From Eledone cirrhosa (Eukaryota), in assembly GCA_964016885.1 (NCBI GenBank), contig OZ024761.1, positions 12,276,001-12,340,000 on the forward strand: a stretch of 64,000 bases of DNA. Reading direction: 5' to 3'. Below the pieces are notes generated by a model, which searched no databases, had not been told where the DNA came from, and worked only from the letters and a program-made list of their open reading frames with translations. This document shows positions 3,423-62,141 of the stretch, piece after piece. Each line of letters starts with the position of its first letter. Position 1 is the first letter of the stretch. Position numbers and translations under genes: made by a program.

Positions 3423-5199
<1,777 letters not shown>

Positions 5200-6000: not shown

Positions 6001-6527
6001 GTAGGGTGGCTATAAAACTGACTGTCAGCCCCCCTCCACCTTCGAATGTACAGAATCAAAGCAGACTCTAACTGCCTTGTTTGCTTTCTTGATCACAGCT
6101 TAGCATGTCCATAGCAAGACTCGTGTCTATTATACATAAACTTATTGTATATACCTTTATATACACCTTTATTGTGAAGCACACTATCTTAGTGTTACTG
6201 CTTATATATATATATATATATAGTATTTACGTATCGAGAAAGAGAGAAAAAGGAGGGATAGGTGATACATATAGTTATTTGCCAAGTAGCGTATGCCAAA
6301 GGTGCTCGATACTAGTGCCGGCAGTATTAAATATTCGAAGTGTTAATATTTAGTGGGCTAGAGAGTTAGCAGAGCGTAAGCACGTGGGAAAGTAAAAATT
6401 CGGAGAATAGACCGTTAAAACATGTTTATTTAAAATATCACCTACGTACGTTTCGCCCAGTTGGGCTTCTCAAGGGCATAAATAATCACAAGTGTTCCTT
6501 ATATAGTTCGGAAAGAGTTTTGGGGGT

Positions 6528-7209: not shown

Positions 7210-9491
7210 ATACTTGGGGAGGGTCATATTTGCGTAATATTGCCAGAATTAATAACAGAACACACTCACTGTTTGGTTGGTTTTCGCTTCTCGCTGTCTT
7301 TTATTATATCTGCGATCTAACTTACTCGGTCCTCAATGTTGCCATTGACTGACCGGCGGTCAAAAATAATACAGATACAATATAGACACAAACACATATA
7401 TATAGTTTACATAATTTACATAAATCTTTCGTTGCACATCTGCAACATCGTCAGTGGTGTTATATTCATTGTTCCTCCTGTTGTGTTGTATGCCTACGCC
7501 ATTTTTTATTCAGTCTGTCTATATATTTATTTATTTATTTGCTTGTTTGTTTATCTTATTTTATTTTGTCTTCTTTGCGCATGCGTTTGCGTGTGTGTAT
7601 AGTGTTATGTGTGATGTGTGACTAGTGTGTATAGTGTTGTGTCTGCTGGGTGACTAGTGTGTGTTTATGTGCTTGTTGTTATTGTGCTTGTGTATGTATT
7701 TATTTATCTTATTTTATTTTATTTTATTTACTTATTTATACTTCTCTTAGGTCAGTGTTGTTTGTTTGGGTGTTGTTGTTGTTCCACTCATTCTTTCTGT
7801 TTAGCTTTGGTCTTCTAATTTCTATTTCACTGGCCTCTCTGATTTGCCTATCTGCTGGGTCATTCCTATGTTTAGATATTATTCTAATTTCTATGTTGTC
7901 TATGTTACCGTCATGTTGTTGTCTAGCATGTTCGTATAGTACTGACCCGTTTTTTCGTTCTTTTAGTTCCCCCCAGTGTTGGTCTATCCTTTCACCTATG
8001 CTACGAGCTGTCTCACCTATGTATGTTGTTGTCATGTTTCTGCAAGTACCCTCTGTACATCTTATGCTATAGACTACGTTTCTAGTTTTACAGTTTATCC
8101 GGGGGTTCACCTTACATATGATACACTTCCTATTGGTACAGTGGGTTTTCTTAAAAGGGTAGGTTTTGCTGATCAGGGATTTTATGGTGGTTCCTGGCTT
8201 TTCTACCACCTTTATTTTTAAGTGGGTCTTTCTCAGGGCCTTTCTACACTGGTTAGCTAATTTCCCTCCAGGGGTGGCGTCCACAAACATGACACTCTGA
8301 TATCTCTGGTTGTCGTACCATGATGTGGCCTTCCCTATCTTATGTCTAGCCCTATCTAAGCTATTCCCTGATTTGCTCCTGTATAGTGGGCAGATTCCTT
8401 TCATGTCCAGTTCTATGAGGGTCTTATACTTTTCCATGGCTCCTTCGTATACTCTGACTCTGTCTCTTTGGTTGTAGCCAGAGAACTGCATGCGGTTGAT
8501 GAAGTGTTGGATGTGTCCTTCCATTTCTGTTGGGTCGCACATGCTGGACACATTCTTCATCACTCGTACCAAATCTGCGATCAGAATATTAAACTTAGCA
8601 CTACTGGACATTGCTGAGTTTTTGAGTATCAGGTATTTGGAGGCCATGGGTTTAGCATAGTGTGAGTGGAAAATTTGGGCTCTCTCGTCTATAGTGTTAA
8701 TCCAGAGTTCTGTGTCTAATACAGGTAGTCTATTGTTAGGGTGTTTGGAAGGGAAGTCTATAGTTACAGTTATACTCTGGTGTATGGAATTAGCTATCTG
8801 CTGGATGCTTTCCATCGTGCTACGTTCTAAATCAAACTTGTTAGTGCTCTCTAGTGGGGGTGTTCTTATAACTATATTGATATCATCTACATAACGAGAG
8901 TACATGATGAGGTCTATGGAGCTTTCATTAAGGAGATCTTTAAGTCTCCTTTCCCACCATACCATGAAAAGGTTGGCAACATCACCAGCTATGCTGACGC
9001 CGATGGCTGCTCCCTCATTTTGGGTGTAGATTTTCTCATTGAACTTAAATATGTGGCCCTTTAGGGTAGTTTTGATACTAGCCCCTATTGCATGTGCGAC
9101 CATTTTTCTTACTTGATCAGTGTTTTGGGGGGTCCGTATGGCTTTGGTCCACCCAATCCACCTTCCTATGGGAGTCTTTTTAGCCATTGAGGTTATGGTG
9201 GGGGGTCTACCTCTTATAGGTCTACTAGGGCAGAAACATCTAAGGTCATGGCTGTCTAGGTAGCCAGTGTCGTAGGTAAGTCTAAGTAGGAGGCCCAGTT
9301 CGTCTGTGTCGACGTCGCAGAACTCCACTTCACTCTCAATGATCATCTCCACACATCTTTTCACAGCAAAATCAATGTTAATGGATGGGTACAGTGACAC
9401 TACATCCATGCTGCCTATTATGCAGTGAGTGTGTTCTGTTATTAATTCTGGCAATATTACGCAAATATGACCCTCCCCAAGTATAACAATA
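7203..9491 (-). mobile_element. Penelope-like retroelement, 5'-truncated, with inverted copy of its 3' terminus
   Basis: RT plus GIY-YIG ORF. 7203-7271 is the reverse complement of 9423-9491. The 3' end abuts (TA)n. Hammerhead-like core CTGACGA..GAAA at ~7400-7460(-). Confidence 0.9.
7736..9422 (-). CDS. PLE reverse transcriptase + GIY-YIG endonuclease (N-terminally truncated, open frame)
   Basis: Motifs SMDVVSLYP, GAAIG, RYVDD, LPVLD, Cys linker CTNRKCIIC..NC, and NVVYSIRC...YIGET.R..ER..QH. The first ~30 aa of the ORF-track protein come from the inverted tail and flank. Confidence 0.92.
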
Positions 9492-9730
9492 TCTGTTTCG
9501 ACACACGATTTCATATAAAAAACCTCGCAAAACTATATATATATATATATATTATTATTATGTAATAAACAACATAAGGCAATTATTCCATTTACCAGTG
9601 GTTTCTTAAAAGCAAAAGTAAATGGAATAATTGCCTTATGTTGTTTATTACATAATAATAATAATTAAGCTCTGTTGCATACATAGAGCACTCTTTTTTC
9701 CTGGACTTTTCCGATGGAATTACTTCATTT

Positions 9731-16737: not shown

Positions 16738-19488
<2,751 letters not shown>

Positions 19489-20568
19489 AATGAGAACCTT
19501 AAATATGTAAATACGAGTTCTAACCATCCACTCTCTATAATTAAATCCATCCCTAGAAATGTTTCTCTTAGAATCTCCCGCCTATCGTCCAACCAACAAA
19601 CCTTCAAAGAACATGCCGAGTATTATGATGATGCACTTAGGAAAGCCGGTCACCTAGATAATATAGAGTATATAGTCAATGATCACCAAAACACCCAAAA
19701 TAAATCACATAAGAGTAGAAATAGCACAGAATCACCACCATACATACACTACCGCAATAGACACAATAATAGTCGCACACCACCAAACAGAAGGCGATGT
19801 AAGGAGTATATCTGGTACAACCCGGTCTATAACAAATCTATTAAAACCAATCTACCCTCAAAATTCTTTCGATTAGTTAGAAAACACTTTCCAACATCAC
19901 ATAAATATAATAAAATCTTAAACCCTAACACCATCCGACTTTCATATTCAACCGCCCCTAATATTGAACAACATATAAAAATGCTTAACGCAAAACGGTT
20001 GTATAAACGCCTTCCAACACATAACAATACACGTAAAACATTAGCTATAACATCACAAAACAACAAACAACATCCTGTCCTACATAAGCAACCTCATCAA
20101 CCCATCCATGGCAATACAACAACGCAAAATTGTAATTGCAACTGTGTCCAACCAGGAATGTGTCCGTTGAACAATCAGTGTCTTGAACGCAACATCGTAT
20201 ACAAATGTACTATCGAATCGGATAGACAGAAGTGGTACTATGTGGGATCTACAGCCACCTCCTTTAAATCACGCCTTTATAGACATCGTTATTCGATAAA
20301 ACATGAAAACCAGCGTTATGTAACAACACTCGCAGACAAGGCTTGGCAGCTGCGTGAAAATAACCAACAATTTCACCTAAAATGGGATATAATAGCGACT
20401 GCCCCCCCATATTCCAATGGACAGGAATTTTGTAGATTATGTAATGTAGAATTATTTTGTATTATGAAATCCAAAAACATTTTATTAAATAACAGAATAG
20501 AGCGATCGTTATACTGTAACCATCGCTTAAAATCTACATTTTCATATTATAAATACTACCAGGATTGA
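19489..20568 (+). CDS. Second PLE: RT thumb, Cys-rich linker and GIY-YIG endonuclease (5'-truncated, open frame)
   Basis: [23 protein letters not shown]...CPLNNQC..NIVYKC...YVGST..FKSR..RH and CRLCNVE. The 5' end is fused to (TA)n. Confidence 0.88.
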
Positions 20569-32150: not shown

Positions 32151-33109
32151 ATAATAATTAATTTTATTTTATTTTATTTCATTTTATTTTGAAAGTCTGG
32201 GGTTCAATCCTGGCCAGGAGATACATGGAGGTGGATTCGAGTAGTCTTTTTCAATTTTCCTTTTACATCTCTTAGGAAAAATCTGGTAAAGTTTAGTGAG
32301 AATCCCAATGTGTATTTATTTTATTTTAATTTAATTTTTAATTTTATTTAATTTTACATCACAGCCATTTATCAGTACGTGTCTTCCTGAGAAAGAGAGA
32401 CAGAGATACACACACACATTCATGTATGTATATCTACATACACACTTATCTATATATTTACATTTAAAATTATATATATATACATATATACATATATATC
32501 TTTCTATATATGTAAATACTTTGGTCACAGTAGCGTAATGTAAATTACTCGGTCTCTTCATTTCTTAAAATGTCCCCAAAATAAGTGATATATATATATA
32601 TATATATATTAGAAATAACAGCCAAATGCCAGAGAAGAAGAGAAAATGAGGCGTACATGTTAAAAACAGCAGTTAAATTCCCAAAGACTTGTAGAAAAAC
32701 GAAGGACGTGTGTAACAACGTGCTAGAAATAGCAACGAAAGGTCTGCAAACGACAGAAAAGTGAAGATTTTCAAGGGAGATGACAAGTATCTGACTTAAA
32801 TGTAGATAGTTGCTTCCCTTAGGTCTTAAAATTTATAAGAAAAAAAGCAGTTCATATTATACACAGCGATATATACAAGGATTTTTATATATTTACATTA
32901 AAAGCCCTGTGCTATTAAGTTAGACATGACTGGCCAAAGCGCAGAGGCGGTACCCTAGCCAATAGGGGTTATCAGAGGCGTGGTTATTTCTAGTTGAAAA
33001 CTATAAACTAAAAGGTAAACAGAAATAACAACACAATCGGTACAGTATTTGGAAGGAATATATTAGTTTAACGCTTGAAATAGCAGGAAGCTGATTGAAC
33101 CGGGGATGT

Positions 33110-34710: not shown

Positions 34711-36694
34711 TGAGGTAGGCTTAAAATTTCATAGGCTCACTATGAAAGAGTGATGCTAGGGCTGTGCAATCTTGCATGTTGAAAAATAAACCTCATTTGG
34801 TCATTCCATGAGAGTATCTTGGTCAGCCTATGAAGGAGTGATGCTAGGGCTGTGCAATCTTGCATGTTGAAAAATAAACCTCATTTGGTCATTCCATGAC
34901 AGTATCTTGGTCAGCCTATGAAGGAGTGATGCTAGAGCTGTGCAATCTTGCATGTTGAAAAATAAACCTCATTTGGTCATTCCATGTGAGTATCTTGGTC
35001 AGCCTATGAAGGAGTGATGCTAGAGCTGTGCAATCTTGCATGTTGAAAAATAAACCTCATTTGGTCATTCCATGAGAGTATCTTGGTCAGCCTATGAAGG
35101 AGTGATGCTAGGGCTGTGCAATCTTGTATGTGGAAAAATAAACCTCATTTGGTCATTCCATGAGAGTATCTTGGTCAGCCTATGAAGGAGTGATGCTAGA
35201 GCTGTGCAATCTTGCATGTTGAAAAATAAACCTCATTTGGTCATTCCATAAGAGTATCTTGGTCAGCCTATGAAGGAGTGATGCTAGGGCTGTGCAATCT
35301 TGCATGTTGAAAAATAAACCTCATTTGGTCATTCCATGAGAGTATCTTGGTCAGCCTATGAAGGAGTGAAGCTAGAGCTGTGCAATCTTGCATGTTGAAA
35401 AATAAACCTCATTTGGTCATTCCATGAGAGTATCTTGGTCAGCCTATGAAGGAGTGATGCTAGGGCTGTGCAATCTTGCATGTTGAAAAATAAACCTCAT
35501 TTGGTCATTCCATGAGAGTATCTTGGTCAGCCTATGAAGGAGTGAAGCTAGAGCTGTGCAATCTTGCATGTTGAAAAATAAACCTCATTTGGTCATTCCA
35601 TGAGAGTATCTTGGTCAGCCTATGAAGGAGTGATGCTAGAGCTGTGCAATCTTGCATGTTGAAAAATAAACCTCATTTGATCATTCCATGACAGTATTTT
35701 GGTCAGCCTATGAAGGAGTGATGCTAGGGCTGTGCAATCTTGCATGTTGAAAAATAAACCTCATTTGGTCATTCCATGACAGTATCTTGGTCAGCCTATG
35801 AAGGAGTGATGCTAGAGCTGTGCAATCTTGCATGTTGAAAAATAAACCTCATTTGGTCATTCCATGAGAGTATCTTGGTCACCCTATGAAGGAGTGATGC
35901 TAGAGCTGTGAAATCTTGCATGTTGAAAAATAAACCTCATTTGATCATTCCATGAGGGTATCTTGGTCAGCCTATGAAGGAGTGATGCTAGAGCTGTGCA
36001 ATCTTGCATGTTGAAAAATAAACCTCATTTGGTCATTCCATGAGAGTATCTTGGTCAGCCTATGAAGGAGTGATGCTAGGGCTGTGCAATCTTGCATGTT
36101 GAAAAATAAACCTCATTTGGTCATTCCATGAGAGTATCTTGGTCAGCCTATGAAGGAGTGAAGCTAGAGCTGTGCAATCTTGCATGTTGAAAAATAAACC
36201 TCATTTGGTCATTCCATGAGAGTATCTTGGTCACCCTATGAAGGAGTGATGCTAGAGCTGTGAAATCTTGCATGTTGAAAAATAAACCTCATTTGGTCAT
36301 TCCATGAGAGTATCTTGGTCAGCCTATGAAGGAGTGATGCTAGGGCTGTGCAATCTTGCATGTTGAAAAATAAACCTCATTTGGTCATTCCATGTGAGTA
36401 TCTTGGTCAGCCTATGAAGGAGTGATGCTAGAGCTGTGCAATCTTGCATGTTGAAAAATAAAACTCATTTGGTCATTCCATGACAGTATCTTGGTCAGCC
36501 TATGAAGGAGTGATGCTCGAGCTGTGAAATCTTGCATGTTGAAAAATAAACCTCATTTGATCATTCCATGAGAGTATCTTGGTCAGCCTATAAAGGAGTG
36601 ATGCTAGAGCTGTGCAATCTTGCATGTTGAAAAATAAAGCTCATTTGGTCATTCCATGAGAGTATCTTGGCCAGCCTATGGAGGAGTGATGCTA
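34711..36694 (+). repeat. 88-bp satellite, ~22 copies, derived from mariner-element ends
   Basis: TATGAAGGAG period of 88 (34741, 34829 ... 36677). The unit halves match mariner left-end (44305, 62897) and right-end (63508) fragments in this window. Confidence 0.92.
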
Positions 36695-44295: not shown

Positions 44296-44580
44296 TACGA
44301 AGGTTGGCTGACTATGAAGGACTGATGCTAGAGCTGGGAAATCTTGCATGAATTAATTTCAAGCCTTCTTATTAATAACTGCATTGTTTCTTTCAAAGTA
44401 AATTGACATCTGACTGTTGAAAGAGGACTTCAAATGTAATTAGTAATGACCTCTTGAAAATGGACAACATTTGGCATCGTGGTATTATCAAGTACCTGTA
44501 GAAAAGGGGTTTATCCCCCAAGGACATTCATGTTGACAAGGTTGCTACATTAAGGGATGACACTCCAGCTTTATCAACAA
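44296..44580 (+). pseudogene. Mariner left end and transposase N-terminus remnant (duplicated at 55931-56205)
   Basis: From ATG 44460: MDNIWHRGIIKYL*KRGLSPKDIHVDKVATLRDDTPALST, resembling the mariner HTH N-terminus. Confidence 0.75.
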
Positions 44581-45289
44581 TTCAACAGGCTCTGGTCCAC
44601 AATTATTGTCTCTCCTCCTTCTGCACATTATACCTCTACTACAATGGTCTCTGCTCCTCCCCAGCCCATAAATATGATGTTCCCTCTCTACCTCTACTAC
44701 AATGGTCTCTGCTTCTCCCCAGCCCCTAAATATGCCGTTCCCTCTGCCTATTCTATCTCTACTACTGTAGTCCCTGCTCCTCAGAGGTTGCTGGTCTCCA
44801 CTGAAACACTCATCAGTTATGTTGAAAGCCTCTGGTCTATATAGTCACTACATTGAAGACATCCAACTCTGTTTTCTTCAAACCCACCATAACTTAATTC
44901 CTCTGCTGCTGTAGCTGAAACAATGGTTAGGTTTTTCACTCACCATGGATACCTTTCCATCCTGTTCACAGACACTGGTAAGGGTAACTTAGGAGTCCAT
45001 TGCTCTACCAATCTTCCTCCTTCACACGACAATAACCTTCTGTTATTTTTCCCCTTTCAAAAAAACCTACAACCATAAGAAACTCCTTGTCCACAGTTCG
45101 TGAAAAAGTTTCGGGATAAAAGAACTGGTGTAAACCTCCTTCGAAATGTAACCTTGTAGGAGGTCAGTGTATATATATATATATATATGTAAGTGTAAAG
45201 AGAGCTGGATGATGATCAACGAGATTACAGGAAGGAAGAGAGGGAGTTTGATTTAGATCTGGGGATAAGAAGAGGCTGGACCATTTTAA

Positions 45290-45614
45290 GACCCTACTAG
45301 GAGAGCCACCTTCGACAGCCCAGAATACCAGGGAGATCAGACAGCTGTTTGAGGAACTGGATATTGAGACAGCAGAGAGGGGCTTCAGCGAACCAAGAAG
45401 ATCAAGACCCATGGAGAGGCATCAAAAGTGATGAAGAGGTGTTATTTTGATGATATCATCCTGGAGTTCTGTAACCAGGCACTGGAGAAAGTTGCCCTTG
45501 ATCACTAACATCATCTCAGTACCAAAGAAGGGAGATCTTTCTAACATGAACAACTACAGGGGAATCTCATTGATGTCACTTGTGGCAAAGACCCTCAACA
45601 GAATCCAGCCCGAG
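45290..45614 (+). pseudogene. LINE reverse transcriptase fragment (duplicated at ~56840-57175)
   Basis: IISVPKKGDLSNMNNYRGISLMSLVAKTLNRI. Confidence 0.85.
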
Positions 45615-47258
45615 ATGTATATATATATATATTATAAGAATTTTCTGTACTATGGACATATATTGTTTCCTTTATTTAAGTGTTGTGTTTGCACCACCTT
45701 AATCCATAAACTTTGGTGTAAGCAGGATTAAGCACTCTATGTATCCAACAGTGGTATTGGATTGCTTATAACACATTGAAGTATCAGTGTATATATATAG
45801 TTTGTTTTTTTGTCCCTTTCATTTCATAAAACCAAATACCTAGTTAGCTACAACTACACTGTACTAAACACACTATATATATATACTATGTATGATGATG
45901 TCCAAGGATGATTCAAGTTGGCATTAGTTACATTCTAGAAATATCCCATATTGCTCAATGCACACTCTGAAGGTTTCCTTTTGTCTTCCTCACATGAAAC
46001 AGAACTATCAGAGTCATTCTTTTTCACCGATGAATCAAGAACATCATAAAATTGTACATGAGTTGGCAGTGAATTTTGATTGCTCCACCAAGTCCTATGA
46101 TAATGAACCTAACTACAATATCTCGCAGTTCTAGCATCACTTCTTCAAAGCCAGCCTATGAGCTTTTCAGCTGATCCTCTTTTGTAGAGAAGAATGTTTA
46201 TATAAATGTAGCTTTGTGTGTCTGACTAGAGAAGATTTAGTTGTGTTTATTTGACAAGGTAAGTATTTATATATAACTGTATCTATGTGTAAGTCTAGAG
46301 TAGGTTTAATTTCTTAGAAGAGGTATATATAAATGTAGCTTTATATGTTATGTGTGTAGAGAGAAGATGTTTTGTTTATTAGACAAAGTAAGTATGTATA
46401 TATGAATGTAACAGAATGCCTTCAGTTCTCTGAATTAAAATCCTGCTGAGGTCAACTTTGCCTTTCATCCATTTGAGGTTGATAAAACAAAGTACCAGTC
46501 TAGTATTGAGGTTGATTCTTCTGTTTCTCTGGAAGAAATCTGCTGTATTCAGACCTGGAGAGGAGATGGGTCTGCCAGGTTTTAAAAAGTGCCCTAGAAA
46601 TACTGTATGTCAATGTGTGGCCTGTATGACTCCCTTAGGAGTTGCAGGTCCATGCATACATGTAACTCTCACAGTTTGGAAGTTCTGCATTCATCACATT
46701 GCTCCAGTACTCACAGCCGGGGAGTTAGTCCTGTGGTAGACCAGCGTACTATCCAGGGAGAGTCTTGTACTCTCAGACACTTAACACCAAGCAAACTGGT
46801 CATAAGCTGAGAACAGTCTTTATATATTATACTAAATTTTGGTCTAATCACATATCGATGAAGGAAATCATGGTCTTAAGATGCTTATTACCAAAATACA
46901 TAATTAGTGATTGATACTAATTACTAAGATCGATGGTTTGCATTTTTTATTTTCTGTATTAACATAAACATTACTATCTTGAAGTAAATATACTTATTGT
47001 TCTGTATATATATATGTATTAAATACTAGTAGTTTAAACTTGTTACATATAGAAACGGGATGAAAGTAAGGTAACACACGTGAAAAAGTAATTTCTTTCT
47101 GAAAATATTTCGGAGACGAAGTATAATATTGATAATTATTCGGTAGAGATCTCAACTCTCACCATACGAAATATATTCAGAAAGAGATATTTCTCCACGC
47201 CCTCAGTTATCTCGTCTTCATTCCGTTTTTATATATTTTTAATAAATAAAATTCTAAC

Positions 47259-47437
47259 TATAAGTATGACTAAATTACTCAGTAGAGTTGCGCTCTGTGC
47301 ATGGCGCTGCACGTAACGTTTCGGGCTTCGCTGTCGTACTTCGGTATGGCATGACCATTCTACGTGTCTGAGGATCGAATCGTTGCGGCGGCAGCCCGGC
47401 TTTATGCTGGCCTGCGCCCCACCTCGCATTGAGTTTT
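47259..47437 (+). ncRNA. Candidate Pol III structured RNA, type A
   Basis: TATAAGTA at 47259, A-box-like TGGCGCTGCACG at 47302, B box GATCGAATC at 47373, TTTT at 47434, and a cUUCGg hairpin at 47332-47351. Confidence 0.45.
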
Positions 47438-48993
47438 ACTAAAAAATTCGCTGAGAGTTATCGTTTGAATTACTTGCCCCTGATTGGAACTATTCTCGTT
47501 TGTTGTCATTCTTCTTTATTGAATTAAACTGTTAACATCGTTTGGATTTACTCGTGTAATTTGATAGAATCAGTCTGGATATTATACTAATGGTGAGAGG
47601 TATGTAATGTTTTATTTGCCGTATATACACTCACAGACATACATTATTCTATATGCCTTTCATCCTTATAGGGTCGATAAAATAAAGTACCAGTAATGCA
47701 CTGGATAATTGCTGGCCTTGTGCCAAAAGTAGAAACAATTATTCTATATACAGAAAGATTCTAGAGACGTACATATTGTTTTATTTAAACCTAAATACAC
47801 ACACAAAACTAGATTTATATATATAAATGTTCTTGAACTGAGGTAAAATACCCTCTAATTTACCTATACGAACGCTTTATTTGCCATGTATATTTTAATT
47901 CATTGCTAAACACTCGAAAATACAGTCTTAGATATATATATTAACATTCTTTAGTGTATGCATTCACCTCTATAATCCATACACTGGAAGAAACGTTTCC
48001 TATCTAGATCAATATACACATATAAAGCTACATTTATATATACACCTTCATTCTTCTAAAGAGGTATGTAATGTTTTAGTTGTCCCTTAAATTCATCGAT
48101 AAACACGTAGTTATTCCTGAGACACAAGAATATATTTCACTACTCTTCATATACAGGAGGAATGTTAGAGACGTATATGTATAATATAACCGTCTTTTTA
48201 CTAAGAATAATAACTAAAACCCCTTCATACTCAGGAAAACTAAACATTCTATCTACATACACCGCCTTCTGTCTTATTCATAGTGGTACATTGTTAGAAG
48301 TAACTAACTAAGCCTTCTCTCGACACTATCATTGCATATTTTAAAATCCACTTCTTTATATACTATATTTAGGTTTAATCAATACTTGATGATTGGAATC
48401 ATGGTCTTAAGATTACCCAAATCGATACTAACTATTACAAATACAGATCTCTCTAAGGCTATGTTACCTACATATTAATTGTTCTGAAAAGATGGATCAG
48501 TCTTCTCCTCTATGAAGCAGAAACGTGGCCCCTCACAAAGACGATTGACAGCAGTGCCCTGAGGACCATCACAGCCTTACTCTCGTTCAACGCAGTAGCA
48601 CCTGGTCGGCTCTACCCATGATGATGCCGGTCTAGTCTAACAAGAATAGATGTACAAAATACTCGAATATAAGGTGACCCTCCTCCCTATCTTATGTCTG
48701 AGAAGTGGGCAAAAATGCGAACCTTATTTACGTAGAATTTGAAGTTGGCGAAAATGGTCAAACTATTGACTCCCTATATAAGTCAATCCCTTACTACATA
48801 TTCCCTGGCTTCTATTCGTGTATATCCCGTTATATATGTACAAAATACTAGTAGTTCCTTAATGGCTATATATCCCGTTATATGTATATATAGAGAGAAA
48901 CGGAAAGAAAGCGAGATAACACTCGGAATATGTCGTGTTATCTCGCTTTCTTTCCGTTTCTTTTTTTTTTTAAAAAAGAAGGAAAATGTTAGC

Positions 48994-49188
48994 TATAAGT
49001 ATGACTATTTGACTCTGTAGAATTGCGGCTTGTGCGTGGCGCTGCACGTAGCGTTTCTGGCTTCGCTCTCGTACTTAGGTATGGCATGACCATTCTATGT
49101 GTTTGAAGTTCGAATCGTTGCGGGGGTCGGCCGGGACCACAGCAGGCTGGCTTTATGCTGGCCTGCTCTCCCCCTCGCATGAGTTTTT
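48994..49188 (+). ncRNA. Candidate Pol III structured RNA, type B
   Basis: TATAAGTA at 48994, TGGCGCTGCACG at 49037, GTTCGAATC at 49108, TTTTT at 49184. Confidence 0.45.
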
Positions 49189-51392
49189 GCCAAATAATTT
49201 AACGAGAGTTATCTCCCCTAAATTGGAATTATCTGCCTTTTGTTGACATTGAACTACTTCCGGTTTGTGGAACTCTTCTTACTTTGTTGACATTTCTCTT
49301 CAGTGTATGGAAGCTGTAACATCATTCTATTTACTCTGGGACTATTAACGATATCTGTTTGGATTTTACGTTCGTGTAAAGAGGTATGTAAAGTTTTATT
49401 CACACTCACGAATATTATTGAGACACAAAAATACATTTCACTATCTTGGAAATATACATACATTTAATTCTTCAATATAAATACATTCTTGTAGTGTTTT
49501 AGTTGCCATGTCTTTTAAATTTATTCTAAACCTCCTTCCGAGAAACAAAACAAAACAAATAATATATACACGCAGCTACCTCTTCTAACTAAACATACAT
49601 GTTACTTTCCTCTCTATACCTTATACCATCGTAATTTCTACGTCGAGTTACCTCGGCATCACCACCTTTACTCCAACTCAGCATTCTCTCTTGCACACAT
49701 CATATCAACTATATATTTATATTATAATCGTATCTCTATTACACCTTCTCTGTATATACTTACTTAGAAGAAAGGTATATCTCCTCATTATACACAGTAT
49801 CCGGAGCTATATCAGAAACTGTAGTATATAGAATACAGACCCTCTCTCTATACATAAACACACTTCGAAGTATCGTATATATGCAGCATCTACATACACA
49901 CAAGGCAAAGTTAAAACCCTCATCTCTACTACTTTTCCCGAGGATACTTACATAAAACTCTGGATATTTTATCAAGGCATCTATTTTTTGTATGTAGAAG
50001 ACATTATATTCACTATCCTTCTCAATAGAGGAAAACAACTCCCCATACATACAGTTCTTTATAGAATACACTGCCTTGTTATATAAATATTGTACACATG
50101 TGTGTATATAATACACTTCTATATATATAGAAACTTACTACTAGATATTGTGTGTACACAGCAAAGAATCTACTTTTTGTATGTAGAGACTCCTCTGTAA
50201 CATCTAGAAGGCTTATATTTACTATCCTTCTCTATAATTAAAAAAAAAACCCATATATACAGTAATACCTTATCTAGAGGCATATAAGAAACTGTATTTC
50301 ACAGCCCTATACCCACTCTCCTAAGAAACTAAACTGTTCATGATAAAGAGGTTTAATTTCTGCCTCTAGAAAAGTATTGATGTTAGAGCTGTGTAATCTG
50401 GATTGTTTTTATTAATACCCTCTGCTTCTTTCCAGGTATGTTGAAGATCTCCGCCAGCTCAACTTAGTGTGTAAATACACACAGTCGTCTCAAGAAATAA
50501 AATAACTCCAACAACAAAATGTAGTTTATTTATTGATCTTTATTTCACATTTTCGTTTCTTATATATATACACAGGTAGTATCTTACATGTAGATCGTTT
50601 AACTTTCATTCATATTAAATATATAGGAATTAACAGCTGTGTATATATAACTAGTGGATTGTTAAACACATGCCTAGAGATAAAAAGGTATTAACATGCG
50701 AGAGAATTCAATTATTATGTCATTAGTGAGAAACATCCTTCTTGTAAGAAGTGTATATATAGAATAGATTAATTAATGTGTATGTACACTATAGAATCCC
50801 AGTAAGAAACATCCTTCTTACTGAAAGAAGTAAGTGTGGTGCTATAGAAAAGTTTCTTTGAGAATGGAAACTGTATATATAGATATGTAATGCGAGTAAG
50901 TTTATTTCTTTCTGTGTATATAGGTATTCTATATCTCCTGTAAGAGGTTATAATATCTATATATACAGGGTTATGTGGATATTCTATATCTCTCTCATAC
51001 TTACCAGTAAGTATATAGGTATTAATAAATAAGTTTCATATTATAAACATTTATAATGTGTATATATACAGTATTCTAGTAAGTTTATTTCCTTCTGTAT
51101 ATAGAATAGATTTGTATTCTATATCTCTCCCAGTATGTATATAGGAATAGAAGTATGAATTCAGTTCGAAACATCTTTCATGAAAGTAATGTATATAATG
51201 CAGTATTCTAGTGAGGCCATTTCTTTCTGTATGTATACATATGCCTAGAGATAGAAGGGTGTTAATATGTATGGATTCTATAGAAGTAAGTGTATATATA
51301 CACATGGTTTTAAGGTAATAGTATCCTATAGAATACACATACTTACTTCTATCTAGAGAAAAAAGTTCAACTCCTTAGCTATATTTATATAA

Positions 51393-52972
51393 ACATACAT
51401 ATGTATGTATATACACATATGTATATATATATACATATGTATGTATATATACATACATATGTATGTATATATACATACGTATGTATATACATACGTATGT
51501 ATATACATACGTATGTGTATGTATATATATATACATACGTATGTATATATACATACGTATGTATGTATACATACGTACGTATGTATGTATATATACATAC
51601 GTACGTATGTATGTATATATACATACGTATGTATATATACACATGTATATATACATACGTATGTATATATATATACATACGTATGTATATATACATACGC
51701 ATGTATATATACGTATGTATACATACATATGTATGTATATATACATACGTAAGTATATATACATATATATATATACATACACACGTATGTATACATACAT
51801 ATGTATGTATATACATACGTATGTATATACATACGTATGTATATATATATACATACGTATGTATATATATACATACATATGTATATATACACATACATAT
51901 GTATGTATACATACATAAGTATATATACATACGTATACATACATGTGTATATACGTATGTATATATATACATACGTATGTATATATACATACGTATGTAT
52001 ACAGACAGACATACATACGTATACGTATGCATGCATACATATGTATGTATATATACATGTAAGTATATATACATACGTATGTATATATACATACGTACGT
52101 ATGTATACATACATACGTATGTATATACATACGTATGTATACATACTTACGTATGTATACATACATACGTATGTATATACATACGTATGTATATATATAC
52201 GTGTGTATATGTATACGTATGTATGTATACATACATATGTATGTATACATACGTAAGTATGTATATATACATACGTATGTATATATACATACATACGTAT
52301 GTATATATATATATATACATGTGTATATGTATATATAAATACGTATGTATGTACATACATATGTATATACATACATGTATGTATACATACATATGTATAC
52401 ATACGTAAGTATGTATATATACATACGTATGTATGTATACATACATGTATGTATACATACATATGTATACATACGTAAGTATGTATATATACATACGTAT
52501 GTATGTATATATACTTACATGTATGTATATATACATACGCATGTATGTATACATACGTATGTATATATAAATACGTATGTATGTACATACATATGTATAT
52601 ATACATACATATGTATATATGCATACATACGCATGTATATATACATACATATGTGTATACACACGTATGTATACATACATATGTATATACATACGCATAC
52701 ATACGTATGTATATATACATACATATGTGTATACACACGTATGTATATATATATATACACGTATGTATATATACATATGTATATATATATACATGTATGT
52801 ATATATATACATGTATGTATGTATATATATACATATGTATTTATATATAGATATGTATTTATATATATACCTACTTGTGTATGTATACATACATATGTAT
52901 GTATATATATTCATACATATGTATATATATACATACATATGTATGTATATATACATACATATGTATATACAT
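51393..52972. repeat. CpG-containing (TATG/TACG/TACA) compound microsatellite
   Basis: Directly visible. Confidence 0.95.
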
Positions 52973-54524
52973 CTTTAATTCCTTAGCTATATTTATATAA
53001 TACAGTAGTGTAGAGATATAAGGGTACTAATATGTATGTAGGTTGTTGTCTTTATATCTGTGTAGTGTAACTTCTAATTTTACAATGAAGATATGCTTTA
53101 TATACACAAAAGTGTTTATATGGTGAGTATGCCTGCCTAGAGGAGAACAGGGTATTGATGTATCCTTTAAAGAAAAGGGTAACTGCGTACATATTGTTCT
53201 ACATACTGTACTCTATTGAACACAACTTCAATATATAATGGAGGTACTTCTTCCAATATAGAGAAGAAGGTATATTATAGACATGAAGTAAGCTTTGTGT
53301 GTCATATTGAATATAGTTTTTCTATATATGTGTGTATGTAAAGAACACTAAATTTCTTTGTATTTATACAGTTAGCTCTCTTGCTTCTTAGGAAGCATGT
53401 ACACTTTCTACTGTGAGATCCTTATACACAACTAGAAGAACAATAGTAGTAGTTTCCTAAGAGACGTATGTGTAGTATCTAGCGAGAATGTATTGATATG
53501 TATGTACAGATCAAAACCTCTTATCTTATATATGTATGATGTTCACTTCCAGGTTTCTACATACACGTGTATAATATAAAGAGACACACACAATGTGGGT
53601 TTAGATATATTCTATAGAATACAGTTTCTTATATACAGACATGTCTACATTGATGTTATTTACCTGTATATAGAGATGGCTTGTTTCTAATAGGTGTGTA
53701 TCTAGGAAATAATTTATATAATATGAATCTAGTATACAGTGACAGAAGGTTTTTGTCTTCCTACAGTGTAAGAGGTGTCTAGTGTGTGTATATATACAGG
53801 GAGTAAATAATAAGGCAACAAAGGAAAATACTGGTTTATTCTTTTATTTCACAATTTATTTACCTTTCTTCTTGAGATAGGGTTGTAGTAGTCTCCAGGT
53901 CTGGTGCTGTTCCTTAGGAATATAAAATAGGTTAGTTGTGTATATATAAAGGTTTAGTTTTGTATCTAGTGAAGAACGTTTATATATGGATGATGTAGCT
54001 ATCAAGCAGGTGCGGATGCTAGAAGTAGTAGTAAGGAGTCTTACGGCAAAGTAATGGAGCTACCATGCTTCGTTAGATATAACTGTATGGTTTAGCTTCT
54101 ATATTTATATGTCTAGAGAAGGTTTAGTTTCATGTCTATTATTCCAGTACGAACAAGTTTGTATATTGCGCCTCATAAGTATCTGTTATGATAGAAGGGA
54201 GACCGTTTATATATGAATATAGCTTCATGTGTACGTATGTCAACAGGATTCTTCATCTACATGGTTTAGAATAAATTTACGGCTAATACATAAATATGCC
54301 TGAAGTGTTTGTGTATTTACGTGAAAAAGTGTCTTCTTGTATATAGAATATCTGTGTGTGTATTCAGGTATAAGGTTTATATACAGAAGATAAAATGTGT
54401 ATAGAGAGGAAGCTTGGTTATATTTCCTTACAAGTATGTATATAGTATCGAGAGAAGATTTAGTTGTAACATGTTAGAAGAGGTGTGTATATATACAGAT
54501 CATACTTAGTTTTGTATCATAATA

Positions 54525-55930
54525 GAGGAGGGTAACATGTATGTTTAGTTAGAAGAGGTAGCTGCGTGTATATATTTAGTTTTGTTTCTTTAAAAGACAT
54601 GGCAACTTACTTTTGTGTCTCAATACGGCAAATAAAACTTTACATACCTCTTTACACGAACGTAAAATCCAACCCAGAGTAAATAGAATGATGTTACAGA
54701 TTCAATACACTGAAGAGAAATGTCAACAAAGTAAGAAGAGTTCCACAAACCGGAAGTAGTTCAATGTCAACAAAGGGCAAATAATTCCAACTAAGGGGAG
54801 ATAACTCTCGTCAAATTGTTTGGCAAAAACTCATGCGAGGGGGAGAGCAGGCCAGCATAAAGCCAGCCTGCTGTGGTCCCGGCCGAACCCCGCAACGATT
54901 CGAACTTCAAACACATAGAATGGTCATGCCATACCTAAGTACGAGAGCGAAGCCAGAAACGCTACGTGCAGCGCCACGCACAAGCCGCAATTCTACAGAG
55001 TCAAATAGTCATACTTATAGCTAACATTTTCTTTCTTTTTAAAAAAAAAAAAGAAACGGAAAGAAAGCGAGATAACACGACATATTCCGAGTGTTATCTC
55101 GCTTTCTTTCCGTTTCTCTCTATATATAAATATAACGGGATATATAGCCATTAAGGAACTACTAGTATTTTGTACATATATAACGAGATATACACGAATA
55201 GAAGCCAGGGAATATGTAGAAAGGTGTTGACTTATATAGGGAGTCAATAGTTTGACCATTTTCGCCAACTTCAAATTCTACGTAAATAAGATTCGGATTT
55301 TTACCCATTTCTCAGACATAAGATAGGGAGGAGGGTCACCTTATATTCGAGTATTTTGTACATCTATTCTTGTTAGACTAGACCGGCATCATCATGGGTA
55401 GAGCCGACCAGGTGCTACTGCGTTGAACGAGAGTAAGGCTGTGATGGTCCTCAGTGCACTGCTGTCAATCGTCTTTGTGAGGGGCCACGTTTCTGCTCCA
55501 TAGAGGAGAAGACTGATGCATCTGTTCAGAACAATTAATATGTAGGTAACATAGCCTTAGAGAGATCTGTATTTGTAATAGTTAGTATCGATGTGGGTAA
55601 TCTTAAGACCATGATTCCAATCATCAATATATGTATTGATTAAACCTAAATATAGTATATAAAGAAGTGGATTTTAAAGTGTGCAATGATAGTGTCGAGA
55701 GAAGGCTTAGTTAGTTACTTCTAACAATATACCAATATGAATAAGACAGAAGGCGGTGTATGTAGATAGAATGTTTAGTTTTCCTGAGTATGAAGGGGTT
55801 TTAGTTATTAATCTTAGAAAAAAGACGGTTATATTATACATATACGTCTCTAACATTCCTCCTGTATATGAAGGGTAGTGAAATATATTCTTGTGTCTCA
55901 GGAATAACTACGTGTTTATCGATGAATTTA
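54525..55930 (-). repeat. Inverted duplicate of ~48087-49615
   Basis: Reverse-complement match with small deletions; the ORF-track peptides are mirrored. Confidence 0.92.
54825..55019 (-). ncRNA. Candidate Pol III structured RNA, type B (inverted copy)
   Basis: Reverse complement of 48994-49188. Confidence 0.45.
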
Positions 55931-58820
55931 TGGCTGACTATGAAGGACTGATGCTAGAGCTGGGAAATCTTGCATGAATTAATTTCAACTCTTCTTATTA
56001 ATAACTGCATTGTTTCTTTCCAACTAAACTGACATCTGACTGTTGAAAGAGGACTTCAAATGTAATTAGTAAGGACCTCTCGAAAATGGACAACATTTGG
56101 CATCGTGGTATTATCAAGTACCTGTAGAAAAGGGGTTTATCCCCCAAGGACATTCATGTTGACAAGGTTGCTACATTAAGGGATGACACTCCAGCTTTAT
56201 CAACAATTCAACAGGCTCTGGTCCACAATTATTGTCTCTCCTCCTTCTGCACATTATACCTCTACTACAATGGTCTCTGCTCCTCCCCAGCCCATAAATA
56301 TGATGTTCCCTCTCTACCTCTACTACAGTGGTCTCTGCTTCTCCCCAGCCCCTAAATATGCCGTTCCCTCTGCCTATTCTATCTCTACTACTGTAGTCCC
56401 TGCTCCTCAGAGGTTGCTGGTCTCCAATGAAACACTCATCAGTTATGTTGAAAGCCTCTGGTCTATATAGTCACTACATTGAAGACATCCAACTCTGTTT
56501 TCTTCAAACCCACCATAACTTAATTCCTCTGCTGCTGTAGCTGAAACAATGGTTAGGTTTTTAAATCTTCCTCCTTCACACGACAATAACCTTCTGTTAT
56601 TTTCCCCCTTTCAAAAAAACCTACAACCATAAGAAACTCCTTGTCCACAGTTCGTGAAAAAGTTTCGGGATAAAAGAACTGGTGTAAACCTCCTTTGAGA
56701 TGTAACCTTGTAGGAGGTCAGTGTATATATATATATATATGTAAGTGTAAAGAGAGCTGGATGATGATCAACGAGATTACAGGAAGGAAGAGAGGGAGTT
56801 TGAGTTAGATCTGGGGATAAGAAGAGGCTGGACCATTTTAAGACCCTACTAGGAGAGCCATCTTCGACAGCCCAGAATACCAGGGAGATCAGACAGCTAT
56901 TTGAGGAACTGGATATTGAGACAGGACCTTCAGCAGAGAGGGGCTTCAGCGAACCAAGAAGATCAAGACCCATGGAGAGGCATCAAAAGTGATGAAGAGG
57001 TGTTATTTTGATGATATCATCCTGGAGTTCTGTAACCAGGCACTGGAGAAAGTTGCCCTTGATCACTAACATCATCTCAGTACCAAAGAAGGGAGATCTT
57101 TCTAACATGAACAACTACAGGGGAATCTCATTGATGTCACTTGTGGCAAAGACCCTCAACAGAATCCAGCCCGATATGTATATATATATATATATATATT
57201 ATAAGAATTTTCTGTACTATGGACATATATTGTTTCCTTTATTTAAGTGTTGTTTGCACCACCTTAATCCATAATCTTTGGTGTAAGCAGGATTAAGCAC
57301 TCTATCTATCCAACAGTGGTATTGGATTGCTTATAACACATTGAAGTATCAGTGTATATATATAGTGTGTTTTTTTTTTGTCCCTTTCATTTCATAAAAC
57401 CAAATACCTAGTTAGCTACAACTACACTGTACTAAACACACACTATATATTTACTATGTATGATGATGTCCAAGGATGATTCAAGTTGGCATTAGTTACA
57501 TTCTAGAAATATCCCATATTGCTCAATGCACACTCTGAAGGTTTCCTTTTGTCTTCCTCACATGAAACAGAACTATCAGAGTCATTCTTTTTCACCGATG
57601 AATCAAGAACATCATAAAGTTGTACATGAGTTGGCAGTGAATTTTGATTGCTCCACCAAGTCCTATGATAATGAACCTAACTACAATATCTCGCAGTTCT
57701 AGCATCACTTCTTCAAAGCCAGCCTATGAGCTTTTCAGCTGATCCTCTTTTGTAGAGAAGAATGTTTATATAAATGTAGCTTTGTGTGTCTGACTAGAGA
57801 AGATTTAGTTGTGTTTATTTGACAAGGTAAGTATTTATATATAACTGTATCTATGTGTAAGTCTAGAGTAGGTTTAATTTCTTAGAAGAGGTATATATAA
57901 ATGTAGCTTTATATGTTATGTGTGTAGAGAGAGATGTTTTGTTTATTAGACAAAATAAGTATGTATATATGAATGTAACAGAATGCCTTCAGTTCTCTGA
58001 ATTAAAATCCTGCTGAGGTCAACTTTGCCTTTCATCCATTTGAGGTTGATAAAACAAAGTACCAGTCTAGTATTGAGGTTGATTCTTCTGTTTCTCTGGA
58101 AGAAATCTGCTGTATTCAGACCTGGAGAGGAGATGGGTCTGCCAGGTTTTAAAAAGTGCCCTAGAAATACTGTATGTCAATGTGTGGCCTGTATGACTCC
58201 CTTAGAAGTTGCAGGTCCATGCATACACGTAACTCTCACAGTTTGGAAGTTCTGCATTCATCACATTGCTCCAGTACTCACAGCCGAGGAGTTAGTCCTG
58301 TGGTAGACCAGCGTACTATCCAGGGAGAGTCTTGTACTCTCAGACACTTAACACCAAGCAAACTGGTCATAAGCTGAGAACAGTCTTTATATATTATACT
58401 AAATTTTGGTCTAATCACATATCGATGAAGGAAATCATGGTCTTAAGATGCTTATTACCAAAATAGATAATTAGTACTAATTACTAAGATCGATGGTTTG
58501 CATTTTTTATTTTCTGTATTAACATAAACATTACTATCTTGAAGTCAATATACTTATTGTTCTGTATATATATATGTATTAAATACTAGTAGTTTAAACT
58601 TGTTACATATAGAAACGGGATGAAAGTAAGGTAACACGGTCGTGAAAAAGTAATTTCTTTCTGAAAATATTTCGGAGACGAAGTATAATATTGATAATTA
58701 TTCGGTAGAGATCTCAACTCTCACCATACGAAATATATTCAGAAAGAGATATTTCTCCACGCCCTCAGTTATCTCGTCTTCATTCCGTTTTTATATATTT
58801 TTAATAAATAAAATTCTAAC

Positions 58821-59000
58821 TATAAGTATGACTAAATTACTCAGTAGAGTTGCGCTCTGTGCATGGCGCTGCACGTAACGTTTCGAGCTTCGCTGTCGTA
58901 CTTCGGTATGGCATGACCATTCCATGTGTCTGAAGATCGAATCGTTGCGGCGGCTGCCCGGCTTTATGCTGGCCTGCGTCCCCACCTCGAATTGAGTTTT
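58821..59000 (+). ncRNA. Candidate Pol III structured RNA, type A (second copy)
   Basis: Matches 47259-47437 with a few substitutions. Confidence 0.42.
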
Positions 59001-60363
59001 ACTAAAAAATTCGCCGAGAGTTATCGTTTGAATTACTTGCACCTGATTGGAACTATTCTCGTTTGTTGTCATTCTTCTTTATTGAATTAAACTGTTAACA
59101 TCGTTTGGATTTACTCGTGTAATTTGATAGAATCCGTCTGGATATTATACTAATGGTGAGAGGTATGTAATGTTTTATTTGCCGTATATACACTCACAGA
59201 CATACATTATTCTATATGCCTTTCATCCTTATGGGGTCGATAAAATAAAGTACCAGTAATGCACTGGATAATTGCTGGCCTTGTGCCAAAAGTAGAAACA
59301 ATTATTCTATATACAGAAAGATTCTAGAGACGTACATATTGTTTTATTTAAACCTAAATACACACACAAAACTAGATTTATATATATAAATGTTCTTGAA
59401 CTGAGGTAAAATACCCTCTAATTTACCTATACGAACGCTTTATTTGCCATGTATATTTTAATTCATCGATAAACACGTAGTTATTCCTGAGACACAAGAA
59501 TATATTTCACTACTCTTCATATACAGGAGGAATGTTAGAGACGTATATGTATAATATAACCGTCTTTTTACTAAGAATAATAACTAAAACCCCTTCATAC
59601 TCAGGAAAACTAAACATTCTATCTACATACACCGCCTTCTGTCTTATTCATAGTGGTACATTGTTAGAAGTAACTAACTAAGCCTTCTCTCGACACTATC
59701 ATTGCATATTTTAAAATCCACTTCTTTATATACTATATTTAGGTTTAATCAATACTTGATGATTGGAATCATGGTCTTAAGATTACCCAAATCGATACTA
59801 ACTATTACAAATACAGATCTCTCTAAGGCTATGTTACCTACATATTAATTGTTCTGAAAAGATGGATCAGTCTTCTCCTCTATGAAGCAGAAACGTGGCC
59901 CCTCACAAAGACGATTGACAGCAGTGCCCTGAGGACCATCACAGCCTTACTCTCGTTCAACGCAGTAGCACCTGGTCGGCTCTACCCATGATGATGCCGG
60001 TCTAGTCTAACAAGAATAGATGTACAAAATACTCGAATATAAGGTGACCCTCCTCCCTATCTTATGTCTGAGAAGTGGGCAAAAATGCGAACCTTATTTA
60101 CGTAGAATTTGAAGTTGGCGAAAATGGTCAAACTATTGACTCCCTATATAAGTCAATCCCTTACTACATATTCCCTGGCTTCTATTCGTGTATATCCCGT
60201 TATATATGTACAAAATACTAGTAGTTCCTTAATGGCTATATATCCCGTTATATTTATATATAGAGAGAAACGGAAAGAAAGCGAGATAACACTCGGAATA
60301 TGTCGTGTTATCTCGCTTTCTTTCCGTTTCTTTTTTTTTTTTAAAAAGAAAGAAAATGTTAGC

Positions 60364-60558
60364 TATAAGTATGACTATTTGACTCTGTAGAATTGCGGCT
60401 TGTGCGTGGCGCTGCACGTAGCGTTTCTGGCTTCGCTCTCGTACTTAGGTATGGCATGACCATTCTATGTGTTTGAAGTTCGAATCGTTGCGGGGGTCGG
60501 CCGGGACCACAGCAGGCTGGCTTTATGCTGGCCTGCTCTCCCCCTCGCATGAGTTTTT
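60364..60558 (+). ncRNA. Candidate Pol III structured RNA, type B (third copy)
   Basis: Matches 48994-49188. Confidence 0.45.
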
Positions 60559-62141
60559 GCCAAATAATTTAACGAGAGTTATCTCCCCTAAATTGGAATT
60601 ATCTGCCTTTTGTTGACATTGAACTACTTCCGGTTTGTGGAACTCTTCTTACTTTGTTGACATTTCTCTTCAGTGTATGGAAGCTGTAACATCATTCTAT
60701 TTACTCTGGGACTATTAACGATATCTGTTTGGATTTTACGTTCGTGTAAAGAGGTATGTAAAGTTTTATTCACACTCACGGATATTATTGAGACACAAAA
60801 ATACATTTCACTATCTTGGAAATATACATACATTTAATTCTTCAATATAAATACATTCTTGTAGTGTTTTAGTTGCCATGTCTTTTAAATTTATTCTAAA
60901 CCTCCTTCCGAGAAACAAAACAAAACAAATAATATATACACGCAGCTACCTCTTCTAACTAAACATACATGTTACTTTCCTCTCTATACCTTATACCATC
61001 GTAATTTCTACGTCGAGTTACCTCGGCATCACCACCTTTACTCGAACTCAGCATTCTCTCTTGCACACATCATATCAACTATATATTTATATTATAATCG
61101 TATCTCTATTACACCTTCTCTGTATATACTTACTTAGAAGAAAGGTATATCTCCTCATTATACACAGTATCCGGAGCTATATCAGAAACTGTAGTATATA
61201 GAATACAGACCCTCTCTCTATACATAAACACACTTCGAAGTATCGTATATATGCAGCATCTACATACACACAAGGCAAAGTTAAAACCCTCATCTCTACT
61301 ACTTTTCCCGAGGATACTTACATAAAACTCTGGATATTTTATCAAGGCATCTATTTTTTGTATGTAGAAGACATTATATTCACTATCCTTCTCAATAGAG
61401 GAAAACAACTCCCCATACATACAGTTCTTTATAGAATACACTGCCTTGTTATATAAATATTGTACACATGTGTGTATATAATACACTTCTATATATATAG
61501 AAACTTACTACTAGATATTGTGTGTACACAGCAAAGAATCTACTTTTTGTATGTAGAGACTCCTCTGTAACATCTAGAAGGCTTATATTTACTATCCTTC
61601 TCTATAATAAAAAAAAACCCCATATATACAGTAATACCTTATCTAGAAGCATATAAGAAACTGTATTTCACAGCCCTATACCCACTCTCCTAAGAAACTA
61701 AACTGTTCATGATAAAGAGGTTTAATTTCTGCCTCTAGAAAAGTATTGATGTTAGAGCTGTGTAATCTGGATTGTTTTTATTAATTCCCTCTGCTTCTTT
61801 CCAGGTATGTTGAAGATCTCCGCCAGCTCAACTTAGTGTGTAAATACACACAGTCGTCTCAAGAAATAAAATAACTCCAACAACAAAATGTAGTTTATTT
61901 ATTGATCTTTATTTCACATTTTCGTTTCTTATATATATACACAGGTAGTATCTTACATGTAGATCGTTTAACTTTCATTCATATTAAATATATAGGAATT
62001 AACAGCTGTGTATATATAACTAGTGGATTGTTAAACACATGCCTAGAGATAAAAAGGTATTAACATGCGAGAGAATTCAATTATTATGTCATTAGTGAGA
62101 AACATCCTTCTTGTAAGAAGTGTATATATAGAATAGATTAA

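Follow-up and report, generated by a model that had tools for sequence, protein, structure and literature searches.

A candidate RNA polymerase III gene family with inward-facing copies in the genome of Eledone cirrhosa

We describe a family of short, CpG-rich sequences in Eledone cirrhosa, five copies of which lie in a 64,000-nucleotide (nt) stretch of contig OZ024761.1 (assembly GCA_964016885.1, positions 12,276,001 to 12,340,000 of the forward strand). This stretch, hereafter the window, is part of contig C22 in the 3.0-Gb genome. The family is real, RNA-gene-like, multicopy and selected-looking, and it is uncatalogued, with cores that match no Rfam family; the unit is present in more than 100 copies in this animal genome. 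Judging from its sequence, we consider with moderate confidence that the family is a multicopy type-2 RNA polymerase III (Pol III) gene with an upstream TATA box, and that it would make a structured RNA with a predicted length of 140-200 nt. The Pol III-type layout, which had been pointed out for the window copies in an earlier note on this DNA, is retained across old subfamilies.

Results

Five copies anchored on the TATA-like box TATAAGTA are present where the earlier note had placed them, at 47259, 48994, 55019 (minus strand), 58821 and 60364. The spacing it gave holds in all five, with TGGCGCTGCACG beginning 43 nt after the TATA-like box and G(A/T)TCGAATC a further 71 nt on, as do the oligo-T ends (T4 in type A copies, T5 in type B copies) and the CpG richness, since the window's only 250-nt bins with at least 14 CpG are the five that contain the copies. 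A covariance model matched exactly these five copies in the window, two of them being part of its training alignment. In the first type A copy (A1, plus strand), the TATA-like box lies at 47259-47266, the predicted -31/-24 position, and the predicted RNA, with a start set from TATA spacing only, spans 148 nt at 47290-47437, with an A-box-like element at 47302-47313, a B box at 47373-47381, rod strands at 47312-47324 and 47375-47387, and T4 at 47434-47437. In the first type B copy (B1, plus strand), the TATA-like box at 48994-49001 precedes a predicted RNA of ~163 nt (49025-49188), with an A-box-like element at 49037-49048, rod strands at 49047-49059 and 49110-49122, a B box at 49108-49116, and T5 at 49184-49188. 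The second type B copy (B2, 54825-55019, minus strand, including TATA at 55019-55012; predicted RNA 54988-54825) faces B1 over a 6-kilobase (kb) interior. The remaining two, identified by sequence and covariance model, are on the plus strand: A2 (58821-59000 including TATA, predicted RNA 58852-59000) and B3 (60364-60558 including TATA, predicted RNA 60395-60558).

These copies had been described as a five-copy cluster, a term that misleads on two counts, as they are neither independent genes nor a local set. They are not independent because tandem and inverted duplications generated them. A tandem segmental duplication on the plus strand (44305-62141, period about 11.4-11.6 kb, 98-99.6% identical), in which 44305-50772 is repeated at 55931-62141, gives copies A2 and B3. 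An inward-facing unit (48085-55933) has inverted arms at 48085-49433 and 54608-55933 that are 95% identical, a non-coding interior and a central microsatellite. Genome-wide, there are at least 111 copies: an exact two-motif pattern matched the genome 111 times, and its reversed control 0 times. This family copy number is a lower bound. Older subfamilies, 73-87% identical to a diverged C8 copy used as the query, were found on C7, C9, C12, C13, C15, C20, C21, C23 and C24; 40 of 257 candidates were scored, so that the counts for these subfamilies are lower bounds as well. Contigs from three runs of one organism covered the whole 46900-49500 stretch. A run from a second organism covered 11 of 30 bins, mainly common repeat, and is silent on the presence or absence of a diverged core. 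Pattern scans of metagenome contigs and viral contigs returned 0 matches to the family.

Across 27 representative copies, the common module extends from about -200 to +400 around the TATA-like box and fades at both ends. The reach of the arms beyond TATA varies from 166 to about 10,000 nt, and neither a common terminus nor a target-site duplication was found at 16 arm ends in nine regions. Since promoter and flanks are carried along without fixed ends or target-site duplications, we conclude that the family spread as DNA and not as retroposed RNA. For the same reasons, it is not a family of short interspersed elements (SINEs), and the earlier suggestion of a SINE master gene does not hold: the copies carry the promoter and both flanks, and lack a tail.

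That the core is better kept than its flanks is supported between subfamilies inside the genome. The window unit and the units on C8, C22 and C23 share 87-94% identity over the predicted RNA. Identity is 81-96% in the 200 nt before it and 77-83% in the 200 nt after it, and drops to 56-57% in the interior. The outer flanks of these units are 50-58% identical, with forced alignments of outer flanks giving 43-58%, so that the interior is near saturation. On a tree of 100 distinct copies, biased toward young types, non-CpG changes per column amount to 2.0 in the rod-domain core (61 columns), 3.4 in the 5' part and 3.7 in the 3' part, compared with 6.7 in the upstream repeat (81 columns) and 5.3 downstream (112 columns; p 1e-18 and 4e-14 against the core), so that the core changes about 3-fold less than the flanks. 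No stretch is more constant than the B box (per 100 copies: G99 W97 T100 C99 G99 A99 A99 T99 C96), with eight positions, CpG included, kept in 96-100 copies and a ninth that switches between A (56) and T (41). The TATA-like box is kept at each position in 89-98 of 100 copies. Constraint peaks at the B box and the rod and drops at the T-run. The core is likely held by purifying selection.

In U6 genes of this genome, TATA lies 30 nt before +1, and the same spacing predicts the G at 47290 and at 49025, or a nucleotide close to it, as the first transcribed position. A TATA-like box occupies -31/-24, a position that depends on the predicted start, in 93 of 100 copies. The B box matches the consensus GWTCRANNC in 91 of 100 copies. 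A conserved A-box-like element stands at its expected place (+13, about 11 nt after the start being expected) but departs from TRGYnnARBGG at three positions. The first T4 is found 140-199 nt past TATA+28 in 87 of 100 copies and at 30-39 nt in three; taken alone, this end is weak evidence, because T4 is common in the AT-rich flank. Type-3 promoters, as in 7SK and U6 genes, have an octamer and a PSE upstream; ATGCAAAT, present in the U6 promoters of this genome, was not seen in the upstream 200 nt of the family copies inspected. The genome's vault genes are similar in having TATA upstream and in carrying T as the seventh A-box nucleotide. One subfamily (L104, L106 and L117, on C13 and C15) has lost the TATA segment through deletion, and two of these three loci have another TATAAAA ~30 nt before the conserved start region.

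In most subfamilies, the RNA is predicted to form a 13-base-pair (bp) rod (47312-47324 with 47375-47387 in A1), an additional 4 bp, two closing hairpins and a variable 3' hairpin domain. The rod and its two hairpins, which had escaped the earlier note, favor the plus strand. In the predicted fold, 92.8% of 1041 cells pair, compared with 32-38% when slid. On the tree, 194 changes fall at paired sites; 85 of them leave the pair intact, where 31% would be expected, and for internal branches the figure is 30 of 58. In core pairs, changes from Watson-Crick to G-U outnumber those to A-C by 57 to 35 (p 0.014), and of 27 changes that start from a G-U pair, 22 lead to a Watson-Crick pair. The rod domain has a median z of -2.8 and is more stable on the plus strand in 25 of 25 copies, which together with the G-U excess bears out the earlier choice of strand. 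Folding of the whole type B RNA gives a z of -2.73.

Several of the helices named earlier were, in contrast, not supported. The TGCGG..CTCGCA closing stem draws on the same TGCG as the better-kept, competing 13-bp rod, and the UUAG loop taken for a type B feature is a local variant, UUCG being found in most type B copies. As for the GTGCR/TGCAC helix, its five pairs are all intact in 62 of 100 copies and not in the remainder. A 26-bp inverted repeat lies upstream of most copies (48897-48960, upstream of the B1 TATA), with an expanded loop in type A. Its pairs change to G-U in 35 events and to A-C in 52, which gives no bias toward the plus strand, and it is therefore probably not part of the plus-strand RNA. 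We also rejected a plus-strand pre-microRNA at this hairpin, given the missing G-U bias and the expanded type A loop; its motifs were not found in the searchable supplements of PMC9699675, a partial test.

The copies also have a characteristic arrangement, which we counted on 100 of the 111 pattern positions. An opposite-facing copy lies within 15 kb of 83 of these 100. Among neighbors, 33 pairs are inward-facing at 5.4-13 kb and 21 are on the same strand at 1.4-1.8 kb, and in multi-copy clusters the outer copies face inward in 25 of 30 cases and outward in none. Older subfamilies on C12 and C20 are likewise paired, as near-perfect palindromes, and five of the ten regions examined showed a single full copy. 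By BLASTN, interiors of different subfamilies look unrelated, and translated comparison of the window, C8, C22 and C23 units gives short matches. Because these matches are colinear, the interiors are taken to be old homologues. No long reading frame emerged from this translated comparison, and a six-frame search of the window interior (49400-51300 and 53000-54700, stops as X) found no Pfam domain, transposase or viral domain. Two interior patches are better kept than their surroundings. The first (50390-50549, plus strand) has a pyrimidine tract with AG at 50435, AATAAA at 50496 and then two minus-strand AATAAA, and is 74-82% identical to the C8 and C23 units, compared with 56-57% for the interior. 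The second (53782-53873, minus strand) has AATAAA-type words on both strands and is 78-86% identical to the C8, C22 and C23 units.

At C23:9372366-9415571 (L084-L089), a 43-kb palindrome has arms that are 96.7% identical and, at its center, an 88-bp tandem array also present at 34740-36694 in the window. About 1 kb inside C20-type units is an imperfect foldback of about 290 nt with about 82% arm identity (L131, about 4000-4290; matching arms in L125-L128 and L132), which resembles hairpin-RNA loci. C20-type palindrome centers (L131, about 5930-6370) contain a GC-rich low-complexity frame with PPPPGGG and acidic repeats.

The view that no known Rfam family accounts for the cores was upheld: they had no match at the gathering score in the window, at E<=10 in 46900-49600, or at E<=1 at nine loci. 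Rfam searches of copies A1 and B1 and of these nine loci gave only weak microRNA-model matches, on hairpins and microsatellites. There was no 7SL or 5S match. The family is, as had also been noted, not 7SK, which this genome has on C2. By the same search it is not U6, whose genes are elsewhere in the genome, and not vault RNA, as there is no RF00006 match and the vault genes form a separate tandem cluster on C3 (221.18-221.25 Mb, L070-L074; at least 11 genes of two types with upstream TATA). Membership in snaR or 4.5SH, with their Alu/B1 and 7SL descent, was rejected in the absence of an SRP-family match.

The statement that the copies are not transfer RNA (tRNA) genes likewise stands, with no ARAGORN or RF00005 match; relaxed ARAGORN calls disagree between copies. 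On visual comparison, the 5' part looks like tRNA-Arg(TCG) of this genome, which came out ahead of all others in a panel of 14 entries (about five real tRNA types) in each of three tests. Origin from this tRNA is not significant, as 9/150, 25/500 and 22/200 shuffles were as good (p about 0.05-0.11), and tRNA-Thr does about as well when judged by its own shuffles. An origin from tRNA-Asn is not significant either. Elsewhere in the genome, a dispersed tRNA-like family (L147 and L149-L157, on C1-C5 and C28) combines one body and nearly identical flanks with the anticodons GAC, AGC, GGC, GGT and GTC, and is likely a mobile or amplified tRNA look-alike.

Other candidates fared no better. Hammerhead ribozymes have CUGANGA and GAAA as their core boxes; here, there is no Rfam ribozyme match, and the CTGAAGA-like word, which has GAAT behind it, is not constant at the core positions, so that a hammerhead retrozyme was rejected. 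The 16 arm ends have no fixed termini or target-site duplication, which argues against a terminal inverted repeat DNA transposon or Pack-MULE. A relic of an ambisense densovirus was rejected on 0 of 29 Parvo_NS1 matches within a listed pair and on a Pfam scan of the window interior only, which very old remnants could escape. Several of these 29 parvoviral NS1-like places in the genome are in open frames of 440-570 amino acids, none inside pairs. A coding exon was rejected because the short frame common to types A and B stops and none is shared up to the downstream donor-like site. Finally, in the literature searched, which left subscription journals and older SINE papers outside, we found no description of lineage-restricted multicopy Pol III RNA genes in cephalopods, and four core motifs appear in no paper of that literature.

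Other features of the window include an R3H-domain fragment (about 46006-46113, plus strand; Pfam E 7e-07) within the amplified segment upstream of type A, which resembles NFX1 and looks like a captured, decayed exon. A U4 small nuclear RNA-like sequence at 32933-33065 (plus strand; 46.8 bits against an Rfam cut-off of 46) has a degenerate 3' half and is probably a pseudogene. Open frames at 7736-9532 (minus strand) and 19366-20568 (plus strand) resemble Penelope-type reverse transcriptase and GIY-YIG endonuclease.

Discussion

Our analysis favors a multicopy Pol III gene whose copies spread by segmental, mostly inverted, duplication. In such a gene, TFIIIB on the TATA-like box (-31/-24) and TFIIIC on the internal boxes would direct Pol III to the G located 31 nt past TATA, and the polymerase would stop at T4-5. 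The RNA would then fold into the 13-bp rod with its 4 additional bp and two closing hairpins, followed by the subfamily-variable 3' hairpin domain. The inverted layout, for its part, would shield copies from deletion and allow correction from arm to arm.

Several observations weigh against a Pol III gene. The family is known here from one genome's sequence alone. In PMC10137851, the 11-mer consensus sequences are TRGYnnARBGG for the A box and GGTTCRAnYCY for the B box, with the boxes 30-40 nt apart; here, they are 59 nt apart, the B box has two or three mismatches, and the A box has three, not the single mismatch previously counted. Regarding the fold, both-sided change is seen in only 3 of 47 pairs, and shuffles give as many. 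In tip copies, 81 of 136 changes are pair-breaking, and many of these copies may be dead. Among internal branches, the G-U bias does not reach significance (19 vs 11, p 0.10), the full type A RNA has a folding z of -1.22 only, and the pair tests lean toward the fold because it was derived from the same sequences. We rejected a terminal stem between the 5' and 3' ends: 67 of 94 copies are predicted to form it, but it does not outperform stems with shuffled 3' ends (median z -0.52), and a copy's own ends have no pairing advantage over swapped ones. Moreover, conservation extends about 200 nt beyond either end of the predicted RNA, gene conversion between cassettes could be a further source of core likeness, and flank rates are inflated because AT-rich flanks align worse.

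Three other explanations deserve attention. The best placed, itself unlikely, is that the CpG island is an RNA polymerase II (Pol II) promoter with a structured first exon, giving a spliced multicopy non-coding transcript that would end at the interior poly(A)-type patches. A TATA box at -31 suits Pol II as well, and so does the CpG island. A donor-like AG|GTATGT lies 270-390 nt from TATA in 72 of 100 copies, near the end of conservation, ACTTCCGG, which we take to be an ETS-type word, occurs downstream in 49 of 100, and among the best-kept interior sequence are an acceptor-like pyrimidine tract followed by AG and, on either strand, AATAAA words. Both downstream words are present in the moderately conserved 3' flank of B1 (49189-49400, plus strand; 77-83% identical between diverged units), with ACTTCCGG at 49256 and a donor-like GAG|GTATGT at 49381-49389. 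However, the donor-like word is a recurring part of a degenerate repeat (47597, 48061 and 49381) and is absent in 28 of 100 copies, no reading frame is common up to the donor, and it is on the B box and rod that constraint peaks, falling at the T-run.

Somewhat less probable again is a DNA element: the cassette would be the long inverted end of an old, non-autonomous one, or of a viral relic, and demands at the DNA level or arm-to-arm conversion would have preserved it. Such an origin would suit the 33 facing pairs and the inward-bounded clusters, the conserved ends around a decaying interior, the upstream DNA-type inverted repeat, and the interior patches with poly(A)-type words in both directions. 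Yet the arms, which reach 166 to about 10,000 nt beyond TATA, have no fixed outer end or target-site duplication, the window unit has no transposase or viral domain, no Parvo_NS1 match falls within a listed pair and viral contigs gave no match to the family, and the G-U strand bias is in the core and not in the upstream repeat. Least probable of the three is a silent or passenger Pol III relic (SINE or tRNA) in amplifying segments, its core kept alike by conversion and low methylation: the partial likeness to tRNA-Arg(TCG) and the damaging changes in many copies would fit, but that likeness is not significant, and non-CpG sites are slowed too, most in the B box and rod.

If the family is indeed a Pol III gene, its most likely job, which we propose only tentatively and by analogy with snaR-A and NF90, would be as an abundant ligand or decoy for double-stranded-RNA-binding proteins. 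Cephalopods are known for extreme RNA editing. In a fuller and distinctly unlikely version, the family would be an abundantly expressed, cephalopod-lineage Pol III RNA with its own fold, kept in at least 150 copies and several old subfamilies, with its genes in inward-facing palindromes, and its rod would serve as a ligand or decoy for double-stranded-RNA-binding proteins such as ADAR; long duplex RNA may also arise by readthrough between genes that face each other. Should the RNA be made, invertebrates would have a new class of structured RNA whose ends are predicted exactly and whose fold is testable. The strict inward-facing layout, retained as the intervening DNA decays, matters for the question of how palindromes preserve multicopy genes.

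Lineage-restricted multicopy Pol III RNA genes have already been described in rodents (4.5SH) and apes (snaR), and the family can be compared with these and with other Pol III systems. Vault RNA (RF00006) has the same combination of upstream TATA, internal boxes and T-run, and in this genome the same deviation at A-box position 7; it differs in that the present family has no Rfam match and 55-110 nt after the B box, and in that the vault genes are separate, on C3. tRNA-derived SINEs are similar in their internal A/B-box layout and many copies, and differ from clustered inverted pairs that carry upstream promoter and flanks, have no target-site duplication or tail, and have no significant tRNA origin. 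Adenovirus VA RNA, EBER and nc886 are Pol III RNAs with a long imperfect double-stranded rod. The predicted 150-170-nt RNA would resemble them in this respect, unlike them in having no Rfam match and in belonging to a chromosomal multicopy family.

The closest parallels are in organization. According to PMC10137851 and PMC7279448, rodent 4.5SH is likewise lineage-restricted, with internal A/B boxes, an oligo-T end, a -31/-24 box TTCAAGTA that TATAAGTA resembles, and hundreds of gene copies inside multi-kb repeat units. Its descent from 7SL/B1 and its head-to-tail 4-5-kb repeats (PMC10137851) are its own. The family described here, in contrast, has no detected parent, boxes 59 nt apart and facing palindromes on many contigs, and is known from sequence alone. 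Great-ape snaR, as given in PMC3045588, is of the same small Pol III RNA type, spread mostly by segmental duplication, and comprises several subfamilies; its core, made up of the gene and about 0.5 kb from the parent sequence, is embedded in variable duplicons. It is also Alu-derived, expressed, bound to NF90 and ribosomes, and arranged in tandem repeats, features of its own, and we claim no sequence kinship. The family is therefore an analogue of 4.5SH and snaR in organization and a member of neither.

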